Shown: in pieces, positions 2,622 to 20,435 of the stretch
Layout: each line of letters begins with the position of its first letter
Numbering within the stretch: the stretch's first letter is position 1
Source: an uncultured Trueperaceae bacterium
Lineage (GTDB): Bacteria > Deinococcota > Deinococci > Deinococcales > Trueperaceae
DNA length: 64,000 nucleotides
NCBI GenBank assembly: GCA_963799485.1
Contig: CAWCXJ010000013.1
Span: 256,001-320,000 of the forward strand
Direction: 5' to 3'
Made by a program: the position numbers and the translations under genes
The notes under the pieces: generated by a model
Told to the model about the DNA's origin: nothing
The model's database searches: none
The model's input: only the letters and a program-made list of their open reading frames with translations

Positions 2622-4456
2622 ATACGTCTGCGTTTCCGGCGTCTTGTCAGCCGGCGAAACACGTTTACTGCAAAAAATGCAGCGCCCACTACCACCAGAG
2701 CCACAACCAACCCCGCCAAGAGCAAACTACCCAGGCTGTATTTGGCAAGGAGCAAGCTGCCGCTGACGGTACCGGACGAAACTGTCGTCACGTCTTCACC
2801 CAGACCTTGAATAAGGTCGGCGCCAAGTATGCCGAAACTCGGTTCGTTACCGAGAAACGTAACTGCTGTCAAAGGTTCGCGGCTGTTTGCAACCGCGTTT
2901 CTGATAGCTTGCGGTTCGAACTTTGCGAGCCGCGAGGGGCGCTCGAGCAGTCTCACAACGAGCGCGTTAAAGGGTTCTTGGTCTAGCGTACTTGCATACC
3001 AGGCAACGGTCTCGAGCTGCCCCGGATTAAACTCGTTTGTAAGTGCGTTTAGATTGACCCTGGAAAGTTTTAGTAGCGTGTTCATAGCGTCTTTGGGCAG
3101 CGCCGATACTTTAGCAGCTGTTACGATGTTGTCCGTATCCAACAGGCGGTTTAGCGTTTGCTCTGAAAAATCGTCCGGGTTTTTTGAGCGGTAAACTTCG
3201 GTGCTGACAACTTCGTCCAAACGGGTTCCGGCGAGGTCGGCCCAGGCTAGAACAGTCGTGATAGACGGTGAGGTCGTAAGAATCTCGAGCGCCGCGTCCG
3301 GCAATTCTACAACCCGCCTCAGCTCGCCTTTTTGGGCAGCCTCGAGTACCGTGCTTTCGGGAACGGTCTGCACGACCTCGGCAAGTTTGTAGAGGTCGAT
3401 TTCGGGAACCCGCTCGAGTTCTCGCCGGAACGCCGCGTTACGGCTGGCTAAGCCCAAGATCAGCGCGAAGTTCTGGGTAAAGCTCTGCCACTGCGTAAAG
3501 ATTTCGCCGGCGATACCCGCCGAAAGTTCCGCGCTGACCGTGGGCGTGTCTTCACGCAGCGAGGTAGCAATCTCCTCTTGAATCTGCCTTTGGGTCTCCG
3601 CACCGGAAAGCTGACGGCGAATGGCTGGAAACGGCCCACGAACGGTGCTGTCGATTACGTCAAAAACGATGAGACCGCCACCGACGACCCAACCGACGAC
3701 CGGAATCACCGATGAGCCTGCCCGCCCCAAAATACGGGTGGCGATGTTGCCGGCGACGCGGCGCGAGACTTGGGTGCTGAGCCGCCGCGCCACCGCTCTG
3801 GCAACGTAGCCGCCTGCGATTGAGGCGACCCCGACGCCGCTCCTTAAGCCCAGCGTGTCCGGCTGAAAGTTTCCTGTCAGCGCTTCGGTACCTACTTTTT
3901 CAACCTGTGCTTGAATTTCTTGCTTGTAGGTCGTTGCTACGGCGCTTCCGTAGGTGTTGCCGAGATAAGTTTGAAGACACGCTGCCGAGGCCGACGCACT
4001 GCGCGCCGCAACCGACGTAAAACTTTGTGTGAAGTCGTCGGCGACTTCGCCGGCGAGCGTCTCGAGACGGGTGCGAAGCGCCTCGGACGTAAACGCTCTT
4101 TCGGCAATCTGTTCGGCGAGTTCGGTCGCCTGGGCCGGGGAGAAGCTCGCGGTAAGGTTTCTAGTCCAGGCGGTATCCTGACGTACACTCTCTACTGCGC
4201 GGTTGACTTCGGTTTCCAGAAGGTCGGGCAGCCCCAGCTCGAGCCACTTGTTTTCGACCATTCGGGGCAAATCCACCGCACCTAGTTCGGCGTCGAAAAA
4301 TTGCCGGGTTACCTCCCTGAGTTCGCTCCTAAGGTCGTTTTCGTCCAGGTTGAGGCAGCGCTCGAGCGGTGGTGCCGAGTCGGATTGCTGTGCTGATCCG
4401 AGGGTAATGTAGACCAGAATACCCAGCAGCAAAGATATGATGGCGGCTCTATGCAC
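2618..4456 (-). CDS. Hypothetical exported, C-terminally membrane-anchored helical protein (612 aa)
   Basis: Long ORF; signal peptide, central Gly-rich hydrophobic segment, C-terminal TM helix with poly-Arg tail; TAAGCT-N7-GTG leaderless promoter. Confidence 0.8.
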
Positions 4457-13308: not shown

Positions 13309-13631
13309 TACACCTTATCGCCTTTGGAGGAGAGTTCTCTGGGCCGGAAATGAACTAGGCTCTACAGCTAAACTTCAATGCAAAAGTGAGGTTGTTTGCC
13401 AAAGTCGTCATAAATTACGTTTCTCAAAGCCCCGAAAAGGTTACCTTGGACGGTCGAGCCGTAAAGTTCAGCGGTGCAAAATAACGCCGTGCGGGTGAGC
13501 TACCAAGATGATGGGGAGCGGCACGCGCTCGAGCTGAGTATTTAAGACAGCGATATAAGACAATCCGCTACCGGGCAAATGCCAAATAATTACCAGCCGG
13601 GTTGCTTCTTTTTGCTTATGGTAGAACTCTT

Positions 13632-14048
13632 ATGCCGCGAGTATTTCAAGAAATTGCTTACGAAAGCCTGAACGCAAGGCAAAAGGAGAGCTACAATTTC
13701 CAAAAGTTTTCTGCTGTGCTTGCCGATTACGGCTTTATCACCATCAAGTTGAGCGATGATTGGCACGGTGCGGATTTTATCGCGCAACATCTACACGGCG
13801 AAACTCTAAAAGTTCAATTGAAAGGCCGACTCACATTCCACAAAAAATATCAAGGCAAAGACTTGTGGCTTTGCTTTCGTGAAGACAACGAATGGTATTT
13901 TTATCCGCATGATGAATTGTCGGAGAGATTCTTAGCGGAAACGAACATTGGAAACACGGAATCTTGGGTGAAGTATGGCAGTTACTCGTTTTCTTATCTT
14001 TCCCAACAGCGTAAGAAGATGCTCGAGCCTTACCGATTTGTGGAGTGA
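13632..14048 (+). CDS. Hypothetical protein with a restriction-endonuclease-like (PD-(D/E)xK) signature
   Basis: GADFIA...VQLKG motif; AT-richer than the flanks. Confidence 0.65.
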   Translation: MPRVFQEIAYESLNARQKESYNFQKFSAVLADYGFITIKLSDDWHGADFIAQHLHGETLKVQLKGRLTFHKKYQGKDLWLCFREDNEWYFYPHDELSERFLAETNIGNTESWVKYGSYSFSYLSQQRKKMLEPYRFVE

Positions 14049-14410
14049 ATCGTATGGACAGAATCGAGAAGGCGTTTGCCGATTACTTCGAGCCTTGGAG
14101 CCTTGTCTTACCCGAGGGGGCGACGGCTGAAGAAAAGCCCGGTGTCGTCGTCGGGGAAGGCTGGCACATTCGCTACATATTCGGGAGCGATGAGCAGGGC
14201 ACATACTTGGATTTTCTCGCCAGCCACCGCATGACAAACGAGCGCCACATTCGTCTACGTGCCAGCGGGAAAGTTGAAGGACTTCCTGCGATACGGGAGG
14301 GGTACGTGTGGAACGGCACTGAGGAAGACCGGCAGCGCGCCGAGGCCGAGTACCTTGCATACAACCGTCAGATTGGCGAGATGCTACGCGAGAAGGGTTT
14401 GACAGACTGA
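14045..14410 (+). CDS. Hypothetical protein (121 aa)
   Basis: GTGA overlap with the upstream gene; protein-like composition; HRMTNERH motif. Confidence 0.7.
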   Translation: MNRMDRIEKAFADYFEPWSLVLPEGATAEEKPGVVVGEGWHIRYIFGSDEQGTYLDFLASHRMTNERHIRLRASGKVEGLPAIREGYVWNGTEEDRQRAEAEYLAYNRQIGEMLREKGLTD

Positions 14411-14465
14411 CTTCAGTGCTCAGGTAGGCCAAGCCGCTGCTGCACCTCGCTCCAAGTAAGCCTAT

Positions 14466-14714
14466 TTAGCTCTCATCATCTGGAAGCTCGAGTATTTTTT
14501 CTTCGGTCTCAGCTACGTCTTCAGCGTCCATCCCAAGTTGCCGCGCCTGAGCTAGCGTGTAACCCAAAAGGTCACTATGTTCTTCGCTGTTCGAAGGGAG
14601 CGTTTTAAGCTGTTGCCAAGACGCAAGATAAGCCTGGGCGTTTTCAGCCAGCTCATCCAGCAGAAATGTTCTGTGCTCGACTAGACTGTCCAGATTTTCA
14701 GCCGTGCTGCTCAC
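14466..14714 (-). CDS. Small acidic helical protein (putative antitoxin, copy 2)
   Basis: Paralog of 14944-15189; GTGA overlap with the upstream basic gene. Confidence 0.75.
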   Translation of the reverse strand: MSSTAENLDSLVEHRTFLLDELAENAQAYLASWQQLKTLPSNSEEHSDLLGYTLAQARQLGMDAEDVAETEEKILELPDDES

Positions 14715-14905
14715 TTTCCACCTCCGGGTAGTCTGGCTGCAAGTCTAGCGTAAATGCGTGCGTGTTTGGCAATGTCAGCTTGCCATTTCTCAATCGCGCG
14801 GCGGCTGGGATAGGTCTCGAGGTCATCCGCAATCTTTTTTTCGTGGACGGCAATCTGCTTGAGTTCACCTGCCAGCTGTTTGCAAGTATTTTTGTTCGTT
14901 CCCAC
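14711..14905 (-). CDS. Small basic protein (putative toxin, copy 2)
   Basis: About 50% identical by hand alignment to 15186-15383; TAGACT-N6-GTG leaderless promoter. Confidence 0.75.
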   Translation of the reverse strand: MGTNKNTCKQLAGELKQIAVHEKKIADDLETYPSRRAIEKWQADIAKHARIYARLAARLPGGGK

Positions 14906-14943
14906 AAGTACAGTCTAGCAAGGCGTATGCGCCGCAAACTATT

Positions 14944-15189
14944 TCACTCTGGTTGCGCATCGTCATCTTGAAGGTCGTCGGTACACGTGTCCATCGCCTC
15001 GATAACGTCTTCAGTATCCATGTGGACTTGCTGAACGTAAGCGTACATCGTTCCTAGCAGCGTATCCGCCTCTTCGCTTTCCGGGGGCAGCGCCTCGAGC
15101 TTCTGAGCCAGCTCGAGATAATCCCGGCTGCTACCGGAAAGATGTCTGAGCAGCATCTTTATCCGCCTGGTTTCGACAACTTGACTCAT
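14944..15189 (-). CDS. Small acidic helical protein (putative antitoxin, copy 1)
   Basis: Shares LL..L......YL...Q.L..LP..SEE...LLG...A...Q..MD.EDV.E with 14466-14714; ATGA overlap. Confidence 0.75.
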   Translation of the reverse strand: MSQVVETRRIKMLLRHLSGSSRDYLELAQKLEALPPESEEADTLLGTMYAYVQQVHMDTEDVIEAMDTCTDDLQDDDAQPE

Positions 15190-15383
15190 TTTTTCCTTCC
15201 CGGCAGCTTTGCCTCGAGCTTGGTCTTAATACGTTCGTGGCGAGCAATGTCTTGCTGCCACTTAGAGATATCTTGACGGCTCGGATAGGGTTTGGCAAGT
15301 TCCGCCGCAATCTTTTTTCGGTGTTCTAAGATGACTTGAACCTCGCTCTGAATCTGATTGCGAAGGCGCTTATTCTTTCCCAC
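15186..15383 (-). CDS. Small basic protein (putative toxin, copy 1)
   Basis: H.KKIA...YPSR..I.KWQ.DIA.H.RI...L.A.LPG shared with copy 2; TAGAAT-N6-GTG promoter. Confidence 0.75.
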   Translation of the reverse strand: MGKNKRLRNQIQSEVQVILEHRKKIAAELAKPYPSRQDISKWQQDIARHERIKTKLEAKLPGRKK

Positions 15384-15435
15384 TCGTACATTCTAAAACG
15401 AAGCCTATAGAAAGAAAGCCTGTTTTCTAGACAGA

Positions 15436-16401
15436 TTATTTAGTCGACGCGAGCCGTTCCGGGTGAACCTTCGTCCAATAGCGTTTAAGCCCCATGACCG
15501 TCATCGCGTCGTTACTCGTAATGCTGTGCCGCTCAATTGTTCCCGCCGACGCACCTTCGGCCCCGAGTGCGCCCCGGCTGAGCGCATCAATCCGCGCCGC
15601 TAACGTTTCGTCGTCTTCACCGGCGTTCATGCCATCTAAAATACTCTCGCTCCAGCTTTGGTGTTGGTGCTCGAGTTCCCGAAAATGCTCCGCGACATTC
15701 TCGACCGGGCCGAAGTGCGTGAGCAACAGCTCTTCGGGTTCGACTTGCAACATCGCCTGAATAGAACGGTGCCAGGTCTCTAGATCAGCTTCGGGGGGCG
15801 GCAACGCAGGTCGCACCGTTTCGGCTCCCGGCAAGCGGATTCCGGCGGCGTCCCCCGTAAACATTCGGGTTTTATTTAGCACGTAACTCACGTGATGCGA
15901 GGCGTGACCGGGTGTATAGAGGACGCCGATACGGTGGCCCAAAATCTCCACGGTGTCGCCGTCTCTCACGGGCCGCACTAAGTTTTGCGGCAACGGTTTC
16001 ATCTCGCCCCAGAGCGTGTCCATCTGGTCGCCGTAAATCCGGCCCGCGCTGCTGAGTAACCGGCTCGGGTCGATAAGATGCCCCGCCCCGTTCTCATGGA
16101 CGTACACTTCCGCGCCGTAACGCTGTGCCAACGTCCCGGCAGCCCCGGCATGGTCGAGGTGAATATGCGTGACCAAAACGCTCGTCAGTTTTACGGGGTC
16201 GAAGCCTGCCGCTTGAATCCCGGTCAAAACCGTGTTCAACGTTGACCCCGGCCCCGATTCGATGAGCGCAAAGGTTCCGGCAGCGCCGGGCAGCAAATAC
16301 ACGCCGACGGTTCCGGCGTAGCCCATGTGCTGCGTGTCCAGCAGGAACAGCCCGCCCAAATCTTGCACCGCCGGGATAACGGGTTCGTTTTGACCGCTCA
16401 C
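15436..16401 (-). CDS. MBL-fold metallo-hydrolase
   Basis: THIHLDHAG, TPGHASHH, FTGDAAG and THFG motifs; GTG at 16401 overlaps the upstream stop. Confidence 0.92.
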   Translation of the reverse strand: MSGQNEPVIPAVQDLGGLFLLDTQHMGYAGTVGVYLLPGAAGTFALIESGPGSTLNTVLTGIQAAGFDPVKLTSVLVTHIHLDHAGAAGTLAQRYGAEVYVHENGAGHLIDPSRLLSSAGRIYGDQMDTLWGEMKPLPQNLVRPVRDGDTVEILGHRIGVLYTPGHASHHVSYVLNKTRMFTGDAAGIRLPGAETVRPALPPPEADLETWHRSIQAMLQVEPEELLLTHFGPVENVAEHFRELEHQHQSWSESILDGMNAGEDDETLAARIDALSRGALGAEGASAGTIERHSITSNDAMTVMGLKRYWTKVHPERLASTK

Positions 16402-17248: not shown

Positions 17249-18427
17249 TCAGGTTTCCTCGTCGATAAAAAGTACACCGTGCACAAGGTCGCGGCTGTCC
17301 GCCCGACCGCCGAGCGAACCCGCAAGCGTGCCGAACGCGGCGACGAACAGGCTCAACTTGAGGTGGTCGAGCGTCCGCACCGCCGGGTCTACGGTCGGCC
17401 ACGTCTCCATAAGTTGGCGTGGAAAAATTGTAGCGACGCCCAGGTAGACGAGCGCGGCAAAGGCGGCAAAGATAAACAGCATCGTCAGCGTAAGACTGAA
17501 GAGGACGGCTGCGCCGGTGACGACGCTCGACTCGGCTAGACGGCGGCCCCGGCGCAGGGGTGCGCCGAAAGCAAAAGCGCGGTAGAGCGCAAAGGTGCCT
17601 ACTGCGACCGACACCCCCGCAAACAAGATGAGCTGATACAGCTCGACGGTGCTCGCTACGTCCCACATTTCGGGGCTGAAAAATACGACGATGATTACTG
17701 AGAGCGCCGCAGTAATCAGGGTGGGCAGGCGCGTCGCTAAACGCAGCGGGTTCGCCCTCTTTACCGCGTGCGCGATGCTACGCCAGTCTTTTAGAAGCGT
17801 CTGCAACACAAAACTCCAGCGGTTGCCCCGGCTCGAGCGCTCATGGGCTTCGCGCGGCAACGCCAGGCGCACGTGGTTCCGCTGTGCGGGCGTCAGCGTT
17901 GCCATCGCGCCCAGATCGTCTACGTTCTCAAACGCGTACATCGCGTTGTGCGGCCCGTCCGCGTGCGGCAGGTTGAGGAGATGACCGAGGGTATGCAGCA
18001 GGAGGTGATTCAGACGCCGCACCGCGAGCGCCTCGTCTGCCTCTTCCCCCCAAAAGGTGGGCTCGAGCCGCTTGGTCGAGATGACGCCGATGTTGGTCAG
18101 CTGACTCGGCAGGGCGAGGGTATAGGAGAGCGCCGTGGCGGCGAGGTCAACTTCGGTGACGATCAGGAGAAAGTCGGCACTACGCTCGAGCTTTTCGGTC
18201 ATGCCGAGGCGCAAAAAGTCGAGCGGCGCGTAGGCTCCGGCTGCCGGGGTGAGGTGCGGCCCGTCGAAACGGAGCAGGTTGACGCGTAACCCCAGTTCGG
18301 TGCCGAGCGCCTCGTCAAACGCCGTCACTGCCGCGTTCGCCAGCCTCTCGAAACGCTCCGAGTGCTTGCCCTCCACGTCTATCGTCATCACGCCGACGAC
18401 GTAGTTACGGCTTTTAGCCTCAGACAC
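17249..18427 (-). CDS. Archaemetzincin-like domain (catalytic Glu missing) fused to a 4-TM membrane domain
   Basis: LLHTLGHLLNLPH...NAM (metzincin HExxHxxGxxH plus Met-turn with E>T); four C-terminal hydrophobic helices. Confidence 0.7.
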   Translation of the reverse strand: MSEAKSRNYVVGVMTIDVEGKHSERFERLANAAVTAFDEALGTELGLRVNLLRFDGPHLTPAAGAYAPLDFLRLGMTEKLERSADFLLIVTEVDLAATALSYTLALPSQLTNIGVISTKRLEPTFWGEEADEALAVRRLNHLLLHTLGHLLNLPHADGPHNAMYAFENVDDLGAMATLTPAQRNHVRLALPREAHERSSRGNRWSFVLQTLLKDWRSIAHAVKRANPLRLATRLPTLITAALSVIIVVFFSPEMWDVASTVELYQLILFAGVSVAVGTFALYRAFAFGAPLRRGRRLAESSVVTGAAVLFSLTLTMLFIFAAFAALVYLGVATIFPRQLMETWPTVDPAVRTLDHLKLSLFVAAFGTLAGSLGGRADSRDLVHGVLFIDEET

Positions 18428-18582
18428 GGTTGCTCACTGAGCTGAGTATACGTTACGCGCCTATACCAAGCCCCGGTTCACGCCGTTTTCGTTGCGGTAG
18501 CGGATACGTTTATACGTTTCATGGTTTACCCCTTTCTAGCCACTGCTATCTCAGAAGGGAGTGTTGGTTGAGAAGTCTTTTG

Positions 18583-19482
18583 CTACCGGTTCATAAATGT
18601 ACTAATTGCCGCGACAATTTGCGGAAGATTGGCAGCTACCTGACTACTAGCAACACTGGCTGTGAAGTTGCCGAGCCAAGCTTTTACGCTATCCCCAATT
18701 CCGCGATGTCCACTTTGTTGGTCAGCTATTACAGCTTGCTCGAGCTTTTCAAGGCTTTTCTGCTCCACACCCAAATCTTGCAGGCGGAAAAGCAAACTGT
18801 CTAAATCCTCTATGGTTTTAGTAACAGCTTGTGTAAACTCACGTCCACTCGCTACCGTGTTTTCATCGCCATATATATAATTGTTTACAAGAACCTGAGC
18901 AGTTTGACTTGTGTTAGAATCCGGCGCGCTTTCTGATATATCAAGGTTGGGGTACTGCTCTCGTAACTCCATCAAAAATGTGAGTAATCTATTCCGAGTA
19001 TTATCTAAGATTGTTTGTACCGACACACGTCCTATGTTTCTCTGAGCATCTACATAGACTCCGGGACGATTTTTTTGCTGAAGTTCAAAATTCAGCATCG
19101 TTAGCATGTCGGATGGCCAACTTGCCTTAATGTTATCGCCGTGGTCGTTCTGAAGCAAACCCTGAATACTTGAGACAGATTGCCCGATACTGATGTGTTC
19201 AGCAAAATCTCTCAATTCATCTGATAGGAGAAACAAAGGAATAGGACGATTATGGATTATAGAAGTTATCCCATCGGTGAACGTTCCTACGCTCTGCACG
19301 TTTATATCAGTCCTATACTCCGGCATTATCATACTGCTGTTGTAACCGTTGATTTCTCCCTCAAGCCAAACCTTGAGGTTATCCGCGTGAAGGTTGTAGG
19401 CAAGCACTTTCGCCTTGAGTAATACGGAGTTGAGGGTTACTTGGTCATCAACTACTTGGTTAATAAGCTCATTCAAGGTCAC
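18583..19482 (-). CDS. AbiTii-like domain protein (putative defence gene)
   Basis: N-terminal LNSVLLKAKVLA..L....L..WL..EINGY.....PEYR pattern; markedly AT-rich relative to the flanks. Confidence 0.7.
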   Translation of the reverse strand: MTLNELINQVVDDQVTLNSVLLKAKVLAYNLHADNLKVWLEGEINGYNSSMIMPEYRTDINVQSVGTFTDGITSIIHNRPIPLFLLSDELRDFAEHISIGQSVSSIQGLLQNDHGDNIKASWPSDMLTMLNFELQQKNRPGVYVDAQRNIGRVSVQTILDNTRNRLLTFLMELREQYPNLDISESAPDSNTSQTAQVLVNNYIYGDENTVASGREFTQAVTKTIEDLDSLLFRLQDLGVEQKSLEKLEQAVIADQQSGHRGIGDSVKAWLGNFTASVASSQVAANLPQIVAAISTFMNR

Positions 19483-19604
19483 TAGAACTCGAGTTTACTA
19501 TGGATTAAGAAAGTATCTCTTTGAATTGTGGCAAGAAACTCAAACACTGCTGCTCGCAATCTCGATAAAGTTTCTTGCCACAAATTCAAGCCTAAAGTCT
19601 ATTG

Positions 19605-20435
19605 CTAGTCTTTCACCGCCCCCGCCGTAATCCCCGCAACAAAAAACCGCTGCAAGAATAAAAACAGGATCAAAAACGGCACGGTCATCAAAACAGCCCC
19701 GACCATGATCCCGCCCCATGACACCCGCGTCAGTCCGAGCAGTGTTCCCAGCGCGACGGGCGCGGTGTACATCGTTTTTTCGGTCAAGATTAAGAGCGGC
19801 CAGAGGTAATCGTTCCACGCGGTCAGGAACAAGATGATGCCCAAAGCTGCCATTGCCGAGGAGACGAGTGGCAGGGCAATCTGAAAGAAGATGCGGTATT
19901 CGCCTGCGCCGTCAACGCGGGCGGCGTCGAGCAAACTTTGCGGCAACGACAAGAAGTTCTGCCGCATAAAGAAGATCCCGAGTGAGTTGGCCAAGAGCGG
20001 CAGCACCACACCGATGTACGAGTTCGTCAGGGAAAACTCGCGGGCGACCAAGATGTACTGCGGAATCACCACGACGAAATACGGGATGGTCAGCGTCGCA
20101 ATGACAATCGTAAAGATGGCGGCCCGACCGATAAACTGAAAGCGGGCGAAAGCGTAGCCGGCCATGCTCGTCAGGAGCAGCGACAGCAGCGTGTAAATGC
20201 CTGAAATCATCACACTGTTTAGAAGCGTGCGGAGAAAATCGGTATCGGCCTGCAGGTCTCGCAGGTTTGCCATAAACTCGCCGCCGGGTAAGAGCGGAAC
20301 GGGAGTGCTGAAGATTTGCGGCTCGAGCACCGTCGAAAACACAACCATCAGCCAAATCGGGGCGAGCCATAAGAGGGCCAGCGGCGTCAGCAAGAGGTGC
20401 AGCCAGAAACGCCCGATAAAATTTGCGCGTTTCAC
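19605..20435 (-). CDS. Carbohydrate ABC transporter permease (MalG-like)
   Basis: AGYAFARF, LLDAARVDGA (EAA loop) and WNDYLWPL motifs. Confidence 0.95.
   Translation of the reverse strand: MKRANFIGRFWLHLLLTPLALLWLAPIWLMVVFSTVLEPQIFSTPVPLLPGGEFMANLRDLQADTDFLRTLLNSVMISGIYTLLSLLLTSMAGYAFARFQFIGRAAIFTIVIATLTIPYFVVVIPQYILVAREFSLTNSYIGVVLPLLANSLGIFFMRQNFLSLPQSLLDAARVDGAGEYRIFFQIALPLVSSAMAALGIILFLTAWNDYLWPLLILTEKTMYTAPVALGTLLGLTRVSWGGIMVGAVLMTVPFLILFLFLQRFFVAGITAGAVKD

Follow-up and report, generated by a model that had tools for sequence, protein, structure and literature searches.

The window analysed here, a stretch of 64,000 nucleotides (nt) from the genome of an uncultured Trueperaceae bacterium, carries on its minus strand at 14466-15395 four small open reading frames (ORFs) that form two bicistrons, B1-A1 and B2-A2, each composed of a gene for a basic protein (B) followed by a gene for an acidic partner (A). 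We consider it probable that these cassettes belong to a new toxin-first toxin-antitoxin (TA) or toxin-immunity family made of two helical hairpins, the toxin domain of which also occurs in RHS toxins. The relatives of the pair in other genomes show a strict order of genes, frequent breakage of B and frequent survival of A alone; B is found at the cargo position of RHS proteins, and the two proteins are predicted to bind each other directly.

The census of relatives comprises 93 curated, non-redundant B places in other genomes, namely all rows of a phylum-wide search plus one weak row of a search within the family. The two rows of the window genome, the second pieces of split genes in genomes G089 and G280, one row of genome G090 (contig C255) and a partial second B in G053, which covers only profile positions 33-64 and has no A behind it, were left out. 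One locus with both genes intact (L008) comes from G090; without it, the census would count 92 places and 67 intact B genes. An A-type ORF, recognised with an iterated A profile, lies directly downstream of B on the same strand in 92 of the 93 places. The first A model, built from 31 partners, recognised A in 54 of 57 loci outside its training set; in the remaining three (L093, L128 and L141) an A-type ORF was confirmed by eye and with the iterated model. A survey of homologous neighbourhoods, which an earlier reading of the letters alone (hereafter the sequence-only reading) had proposed as a check of its toxin-first TA assignment, therefore found B followed by A consistently.

Decay of the two genes is strongly asymmetric. 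B is damaged in 25 of the 93 places by lesions at differing positions, including nonsense codons (twice at the codon of W42, in L087 and L090), frameshifts, N- and C-terminal truncations and loss of the start codon. Automatic criteria had flagged 27 damaged genes; upon inspection by eye, L138-L140 (divergent N-terminus, GTG start) were moved to the intact group and L013 to the damaged one. A is full-length in 88 places, 83 of them by strict criteria and five with a start codon further in. The exceptions are L131, where A is truncated to 40 amino acids (aa) and the B start is lost as well, L013, where A is absent, L016 and L096 with an uncertain start, and L085, which ends at a contig edge. All 68 intact B genes are accompanied by an A-type ORF, and 22 of the 25 damaged ones stand beside a full-length A. 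Additionally, 33 places were taken in which A is present and no match to B reaches E≤1e-3, with four contig-edge rows and the G090 rows left out. Two had no upstream sequence; among the 31 evaluable places, ten retain B remnants (five detected by profile at E≤0.02, five by eye) and 21 have no trace of B. The absence of intact B without A, the frequent breakage of B and the frequent orphan A together make up the pattern expected of a harmful protein and its antidote. Roles of B as toxin and A as antidote would fit this comparative behaviour of a conserved, coupled pair, and to that extent the toxin-first proposal is supported.

Individual loci from the genus of the window genome are worth describing. 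In L013 (G122), the sole exception to the pairing, a clustered regularly interspaced short palindromic repeats (CRISPR)-like array has taken the place of the 3' end of B and of anything that lay behind it; this array occupies positions 172-1510 of that locus, has about 18 copies of a 37-nt repeat with a period of about 72, and no A follows B. The syntenic locus L005 (G126) has a single cassette at 1477-1931 beside a metallo-beta-lactamase-fold gene; a deletion abutting this gene removed the B promoter and first codons, and A is intact. In L016 (G125), the A region (1616-2536) runs into a long C-terminal extension within an open frame of 307 codons, where the ORF from the first ATG has 260 aa and a canonical start codon is absent before the first helix.

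The same census bears on the reverse assignment of roles, in which A would be the harmful protein and the first-encoded basic B a DNA-binding antitoxin. Most type II modules have the antitoxin gene first, and basic helical proteins can bind DNA, so that general knowledge lends this arrangement some appeal. A toxin would not be tolerated without its antitoxin, which is why the full-length A genes beside broken B and the 21 A genes with no B at all speak against it; moreover, B, and not A, is the protein fused behind RHS cores. We regard reversed roles as highly improbable.

The link to RHS polymorphic toxins rests on three metagenomic proteins (P0129, P0076 and P0110), found among the 150 listed representatives of the B family, in which the B domain directly follows the RHS-associated core. 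In P0129 (442 aa, source name 'RHS repeat-associated protein'), model TIGR03696 (Rhs_assc_core), which has a DPxGL-type motif at its end, matches residues 284-335 up to its last position with 54.3 bits against a cut-off of 32.5, and the B domain occupies residues 340-402, five residues after the end of the core. In P0076 and P0110, core and B are joined in the same way, but the core ends score below threshold (E 0.015 and 0.007). Thirty-seven metagenomic loci related to the body of P0129 have neither B nor A, and most of the matches end at residue 334; the C-terminus of this RHS lineage is thus variable, as expected of polymorphic toxins. In all three fusions about 40 residues follow the B domain, Gly-rich and ending in C-P-x-G-G-I-A-C in two of them, hydrophobic and Gly/Ala-rich in the third, so that B may be only a part of the toxic module there. 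Standalone B has no such tail.

Cassettes of Rhs C-terminal toxins (Rhs-CT) and RhsI immunity proteins are known from polymorphic toxin systems (Zhang et al. 2012, PMC3482391). The B-A family resembles these cassettes in the junction of B with the core, in the other C-termini borne by related RHS bodies, in the small partner gene after standalone B and in the frequent partner-only orphans. It differs from them in that the window genome has no RHS core, that B stands free, begins at a start codon of its own and lacks a delivery domain, and that the extra tail is confined to the RHS forms. The window cassettes are neither within nor downstream of an RHS or other delivery gene; their neighbours are a metallo-beta-lactamase-fold gene and an ORF pair of no assigned family.

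These fusions, together with the 31 orphan A genes and the 25 damaged B genes, would also suit an immunity-centred explanation, according to which A is selected against RHS-borne or other B-type toxins of competitors and standalone B genes are decaying orphan toxin cassettes with no addiction or defence function. Such an account appears quite unlikely to us, as 68 of the 93 B genes are intact with their own start codons, secretion and delivery domains are absent from the standalone proteins, an RHS core is missing from the window genome and the fusions are only three of the 150 listed representatives. Furthermore, 14 of 67 B starts examined have a -10 box at a fixed spacing of 6 nt, which argues for independent expression of B.

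Prediction of structures provided a physical counterpart to the pairing. In AlphaFold2 models made with family alignments, helices 3-29 and 36-59 of B1 pair into a hairpin (predicted local distance difference test, pLDDT, 88.9), and so do helices 3-33 and 39-76 of A1, the acidic tail of which is disordered (pLDDT 89.3). Modelled together, they reached interaction prediction scores from aligned errors (ipSAE) of 0.85, 0.84 and 0.84 in three runs, compared to 0.01 for the best of three controls, with a pLDDT of at least 88 for the partners and at least 97% of contacts common to the runs. The mark applied to ipSAE is reached by 116 of 157 solved complexes and by 2 of 215 mismatched pairs, a calibration only roughly applicable here because custom alignments were used. 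The models support direct binding of A1 to B1, and the complex modelling suggested alongside the original TA proposal accordingly came out in favour of binding between B1 and A1 (ipSAE 0.84).

The predicted interface consists of B1 residues 1, 6, 9-10, 12-14, 16-17, 35, 37-38, 41, 45, 48-49 and 52 and A1 residues 9, 12-13, 16, 42-43, 45-51, 53-54, 57 and 61, and it takes in the best-conserved stretch of A, L-E-G-x-L-Y-A in the consensus. The conserved surface residues H21, K24 and E28 of B and its conserved loop residue P34 are outside the listed interface and may be candidates for contact with a target. Foldseek found no match to either the B1 or the A1 model in the PDB at E≤0.001, generic hairpins only, and the top hit of a wide VIA fold search for B (Z 9.3) was a designed heterodimer, within the range that is uninformative for helical proteins.

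Two plain helical hairpins predicted to bind each other might also be subunits of a small regulatory or structural helical bundle, for example a nucleic-acid-binding factor and its modulator, of which B is the less constrained. For such a non-toxic heterodimer speak, besides the models, the absence of a toxin signature in library searches, the weak sub-threshold matches of B to RNA-binding coiled-coil arms (Val_tRNA-synt_C and ABC_tran_CTD) and the conserved site of the module, flanked by housekeeping genes, in the chromosomes of three congeneric species. We nevertheless judge it unlikely. If a two-subunit complex were lost neutrally, A, as the longer gene, should be broken no less often than B, which is hard to reconcile with a census in which B is damaged in 25 places and A is truncated or absent in two and uncertain in two others. 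A is alone in 31 further places and intact B never is. Other points against this account are the place of B as cargo in RHS proteins, its patchy, multicopy distribution and the low-GC islet around the window copies.

Returning to the toxin-antidote reading, we searched for relatives of both proteins in libraries of known families. B1, A1, B2 and A2 gave nothing above cut-off in Pfam, NCBIfam, PADLOC and PHROGs, and neither did 13 B members, 31 A members and 20 long B representatives in Pfam. The best sub-threshold matches of B were coiled-coil models (E 0.001-0.1), with Val_tRNA-synt_C in four of the 13 members (best E 0.0012) and ABC_tran_CTD in three. Searches of PDB sequences with the two family profiles ended at best E values of 0.15 and 0.11. 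Among TA superfamilies (RelE/ParE, MazF, PIN, HicA, Fic/Doc, HEPN and others; helix-turn-helix (HTH), ribbon-helix-helix (RHH), Phd and AbrB), none was above its curated cut-off; the sequence-only reading had seen no RelE, VapC, HicA, MazF or HTH/RHH signature, and the profile libraries agree. DUF2383, the UniRef label of one A homologue, was considered and rejected, being absent from the 25 listed of the 46 Pfam families matched by the 31 A members.

Judged by profile matches, B is the founder of a large unnamed protein family. A profile of 13 intact B proteins, scored against 1.84 billion representative proteins, retrieved 467 representatives at E≤1e-3, 153 of them at E≤1e-10; 109 of the 150 listed have 60-69 aa. 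B2 matches the family profile at E 4.1e-26 and A2 the A profile at E 2.5e-21. Source labels of the members are 'hypothetical protein' or evidently spurious coiled-coil names. In a word-indexed protein search, B1 alone gave one match and the A alignment 19, unnamed or 'hypothetical' except for one labelled 'DNA-binding ferritin-like protein'; the B alignment had no match among longer proteins. The nearest clusters in a protein atlas (scores 0.88-0.91) are all unnamed and, by taxon labels that serve as a lead only, commonest in Acidobacteriota and Cyanobacteriota. Scans of genome contigs with the alignment labelled A1 and with P0076 yielded no relatives. A description of the family was not found in the literature on polymorphic toxins, RHS, helical hairpins, TA systems in Deinococcota or the homologue identifiers, and the term-matched passages of the preprint 10.1101/2021.10.19.465003 mention no Deinococcus, Thermus or helical toxins.

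Across the 13 B members, N4, K5, H21, I25, P34, W42 and L60 are invariant and G2, K24, E28 and I39 are conserved in at least 90%; position 45 is either D or E, and H49 gives way to F or W. Judging by the heptad spacing, I25, W42 and L60 would be core residues of the hairpin. A HEPN-like Rx4-6H motif was sought by eye around the invariant H21 in the alignment, and none was present. The proposal that invariant His, Lys, Trp and Asp residues are catalytic is not supported, given the variable D45 and H49, the short list of invariant positions and the plain hairpin fold.

The features of the two cassettes are listed in Table 1. The opposite charge of the partners is pronounced, with lysine and arginine against aspartate and glutamate counts of 18 vs 7 in B1, 13 vs 7 in B2, 6 vs 19 in A1 and 4 vs 19 in A2. 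Stop and start codons overlap by 4 nt within each pair (ATGA in B1/A1, GTGA in B2/A2), and a spacer of 38 nt separates the A1 stop from the B2 start. The description of two paralogous bicistrons with overlapping stop and start codons and opposite charge thus proved accurate for all four ORFs.

Table 1 Genes and candidate promoter elements of the two cassettes (window coordinates; pI, isoelectric point)
Feature	Position	Strand	Description
B1	15186-15383	-	65 aa, GTG start, pI 10.6; candidate toxin
A1	14944-15189	-	81 aa, ATG start, pI 4.2; candidate antidote of B1
B2	14711-14905	-	64 aa, GTG start, pI 9.8; B1 paralogue
A2	14466-14714	-	82 aa, GTG start, pI 4.1; A1 paralogue
-10-like box TAGAAT	15390-15395	-	6 nt upstream of B1 GTG; candidate promoter of a leaderless B1-A1 transcript; read from the sequence
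-10-like box TAGACT	14912-14917	-	6 nt upstream of B2 GTG, within the A1-B2 spacer; read from the sequence

B1 and B2 are identical at 33 of 65 residues (51%, E 1e-20), with H.KKIA, YPSR and KWQ.DIA.H.RI all present, just as the hand alignment had given them at about 50%. For A1 and A2, 26 of 64 aligned residues are identical (41%, E 3e-11), or about 32% over the full length, close to the 30% first estimated. B1 is nearer to copies from other genomes (65% identity to P0001 and 62.5% to L006) than to B2, and A1 is 77% identical to the A copy of L005 compared to 41% to A2. In trees of 21 B and 21 A sequences, B1 and B2 share a subclade of weak support with copies of other genera and are not joined as sisters; the resolution of these trees is too poor to date the duplication. 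By these comparisons the two cassettes would be old paralogues or separate arrivals, and a recent tandem duplication is not supported. The idea that the acidic partner drifted faster after duplication to secure cognate specificity found no support, as B1 is closer to copies of other genomes and the interface is no more diverged than the rest: by hand count, B1 and B2 are identical at 8 of 17 predicted interface positions and at 25 of 48 remaining ones.

GTAC-NN separates each -10-like box from the GTG start, and the tetramers GGAG, GAGG and AGGA do not occur in the 14 nt upstream of either B1 or B2. A sigma-70 scan that required both hexamers found neither promoter nor terminator in 14300-15600. 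Among the 67 B genes examined, TANNNT ends exactly 6 nt before the start in 14, both window copies included, and any other spacing from 0 to 37 nt has 0-4 occurrences; in some of the other B genes, a Shine-Dalgarno-like tetramer is found instead in the 14 nt before the start. For the suggested leaderless promoters TAGA(A/C)T-GTAC-NN, the boxes are present as described and their spacing recurs in relatives, and leaderless expression of the cassettes would follow from this geometry. The A genes are preceded by purine-rich stretches within B, GGAAGGA just 5' of the A1 ATG and GGAGG 5 nt upstream of the A2 GTG. They are read from the codons of the C-terminal L-P-G-(G/R)-(K/R) motif of B (15186-15200 and 14711-14725, respectively, minus strand), so that conservation of this motif may partly reflect a ribosome-binding site for A.

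Within Deinococcota, B was found in 63 of 364 genomes including that of the window, with up to five matches per genome, and in 15 of 128 genomes of the window's family, again counting the window genome. Without the latter, the counts by family are 13/127 (f1), 5/125 (f2), 12/19 (f3), 5/23 (f4), 27/68 (f5) and 0/1 (f6). An A-seeded search gave 128 rows in 76 of the 364 genomes. Relatives identified by exact look-up bear the names Thermus aquaticus, Thermus caldilimi and Deinococcus sp. In the window, the cassettes are located in an islet of 50.1% GC (13309-15435; 59.2% over the window as a whole), bordered by an amine-oxidase-like gene and a metallo-beta-lactamase-fold gene. Both the low-GC islet and the patchy, multicopy distribution count for a toxin-antidote family.

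Two overlapping ORFs of the same islet, at 13602-14048 (148 aa) and 14045-14410 (121 aa) on the plus strand, converge on A2. Neither has a Pfam match, and the pair (13602-14410) may be another accessory two-gene module. A second dip in GC content, at 18400-19800 of the window (41-49% compared to roughly 59-65% in most of the flanking sequence), may be another islet.

In other genomes the module is adjoined by PIN genes (L010, L017 and L165), HicA (L023) and an RHH gene (L015), although these conflict-gene neighbours are anecdotal and come from no systematic survey. A viral contig of 49.6 kb carries a B-A pair of 65 and 83 aa with a 4-nt overlap (3001-3198 and 3195-3446; locus L144, 1849-5362); HTH_26, DUF4258 and DUF2283 genes immediately precede the pair, and DUF6848 and HNH genes come after it. 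Two orphan A genes are found directly after a weak RelB-like ORF with a 99-aa ORF of no assigned family (L161, 197-1213) and after a PIN-domain gene (L165, 274-1213).

In three species of one f5 genus (L075, L077 and L093; relatives named Thermus, genomes of 2.0-2.5 Mb) the module has a conserved position between a gene for a class II aminoacyl-tRNA synthetase and one for aspartate-semialdehyde dehydrogenase. A overlaps the 3' end of B there by about 70 nt, not 4 nt, and in L093 B contains a stop codon and the A frame is open.

Several observations weigh against a toxin-antidote family. Neither in sequence nor in fold does B match any characterised toxin, and hairpins of two helices are generic. 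The conserved f5 position looks vertically inherited rather than mobile, and tblastn searches with B1 and P0006 of 72,556 plasmid records and with B1 of 50,697 phage records revealed no copy. Related species may share an ancestral lesion (e.g., L092/L103 and L101/L102), so the independent events of B damage are fewer than 25. The RHS link consists of three of the 150 listed representatives, only one of which exceeds the curated cut-off; the tail of about 40 aa behind B in all three could be the truly toxic part, and the window genome (3.66 Mb in 15 contigs, 99.99% complete) has no TIGR03696 match and no RHS core.

Among known systems, toxin-first type II modules such as HigB-HigA, HicA-HicB and MqsR-MqsA are the nearest in organisation. 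What defines type II modules in terms of gene layout, adjacent, co-oriented small genes forming one unit, is found here in the 4-nt overlaps and in the order kept in 92 of 93 places; direct binding of antitoxin to toxin is supported in silico only (ipSAE 0.84). The cassettes share with toxin-first modules the stop/start overlap with the presumed toxin first, a basic toxin and an acidic partner with a predicted direct complex, and a patchy multicopy distribution with PIN and HicA modules as neighbours. Unlike them, B-A has no profile match to any TA family, B is a two-helix hairpin of 65 aa with no RNase fold, and A contains no HTH or RHH domain.

Hha-TomB (YmoA family) is a pair of a small basic, all-helical protein and a small acidic, helical partner that counteracts it; tomB comes first, and Hha acts with H-NS. 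The likeness to B-A lies in the charge and helicity of the partners and in the presumed counteraction, whereas B and A reach no Pfam cut-off and the gene order is reversed. EsxA-EsxB (WXG100) are bicistronic helical hairpins that pack into a helical bundle, and B-A is likewise a bicistronic pair of helical hairpins of roughly 65-100 aa with predicted bundle packing. In contrast to them, the B-A partners are oppositely charged, the WXG motif is absent and no type VII secretion context was seen; WXG100 (PF06013) matched one of 31 A members below cut-off (E 0.039) and no B member. Glycine-zipper, membrane-depolarising C-termini are known from LXG toxins such as EsxX (PMC12744356). As far as their sequences suggest, the Gly/Ala-rich or hydrophobic tails of the RHS-B proteins could act on membranes in a similar manner; standalone B, both window copies included, differs from these C-termini in that it ends in LPG(R/G)(K/G)K, has no tail and is highly charged and not hydrophobic.

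On the assumption that B is the toxin, the following mechanism can be envisaged. A promoter with a -10 element only, 6 nt before the GTG, would produce a leaderless mRNA, from which B would be translated first and A by coupling through the 4-nt overlap, aided by the purine-rich stretch in the 3' end of B. B is predicted to fold into a basic antiparallel two-helix hairpin, and free B would harm the cell. Its target may be polyanionic, e.g., tRNA or the ribosome, as hinted at by the weak likeness to tRNA-binding coiled-coil arms, and would be affected by binding and not by catalysis. The second helix of A, with L-E-G-x-L-Y-A, and the start of its first helix are predicted to lie along one face of B (6-17 and 35-52), where A and B would form a helical bundle that masks B. 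A genes kept without B may also serve as immunity against incoming RHS-B toxins. Taken further, B may be a toxin domain of minimal size (about 60 residues) that is not an enzyme and acts by binding a polyanionic target, both intracellularly in TA modules and as RHS cargo, and is neutralised by a hairpin completing the bundle, in Deinococcota and, by atlas labels, in Cyanobacteriota and Acidobacteriota; we put this extension forward tentatively and hold it to be possible rather than probable.

The comparative signature, namely no intact B without A, frequent decay of B and frequent orphan A, is independent of homology to known toxins. Should B prove toxic, the TA and toxin-immunity repertoire would gain an all-helical toxin that is new and unusually small, with a simple hairpin-on-hairpin neutralisation that lends itself to study, and hundreds of genes for 'hypothetical proteins' would become annotatable (467 representatives at E≤1e-3 for B alone). 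The shared domain would then link chromosomal TA-like cassettes with RHS-delivered toxins, and, should the minimal-toxin extension be true, it would represent a new toxin fold and mechanism class common to TA systems and interbacterial competition. Moreover, with a -10 box that recurs 6 nt ahead of the start, the cassettes are well suited to testing leaderless expression in Deinococcota.

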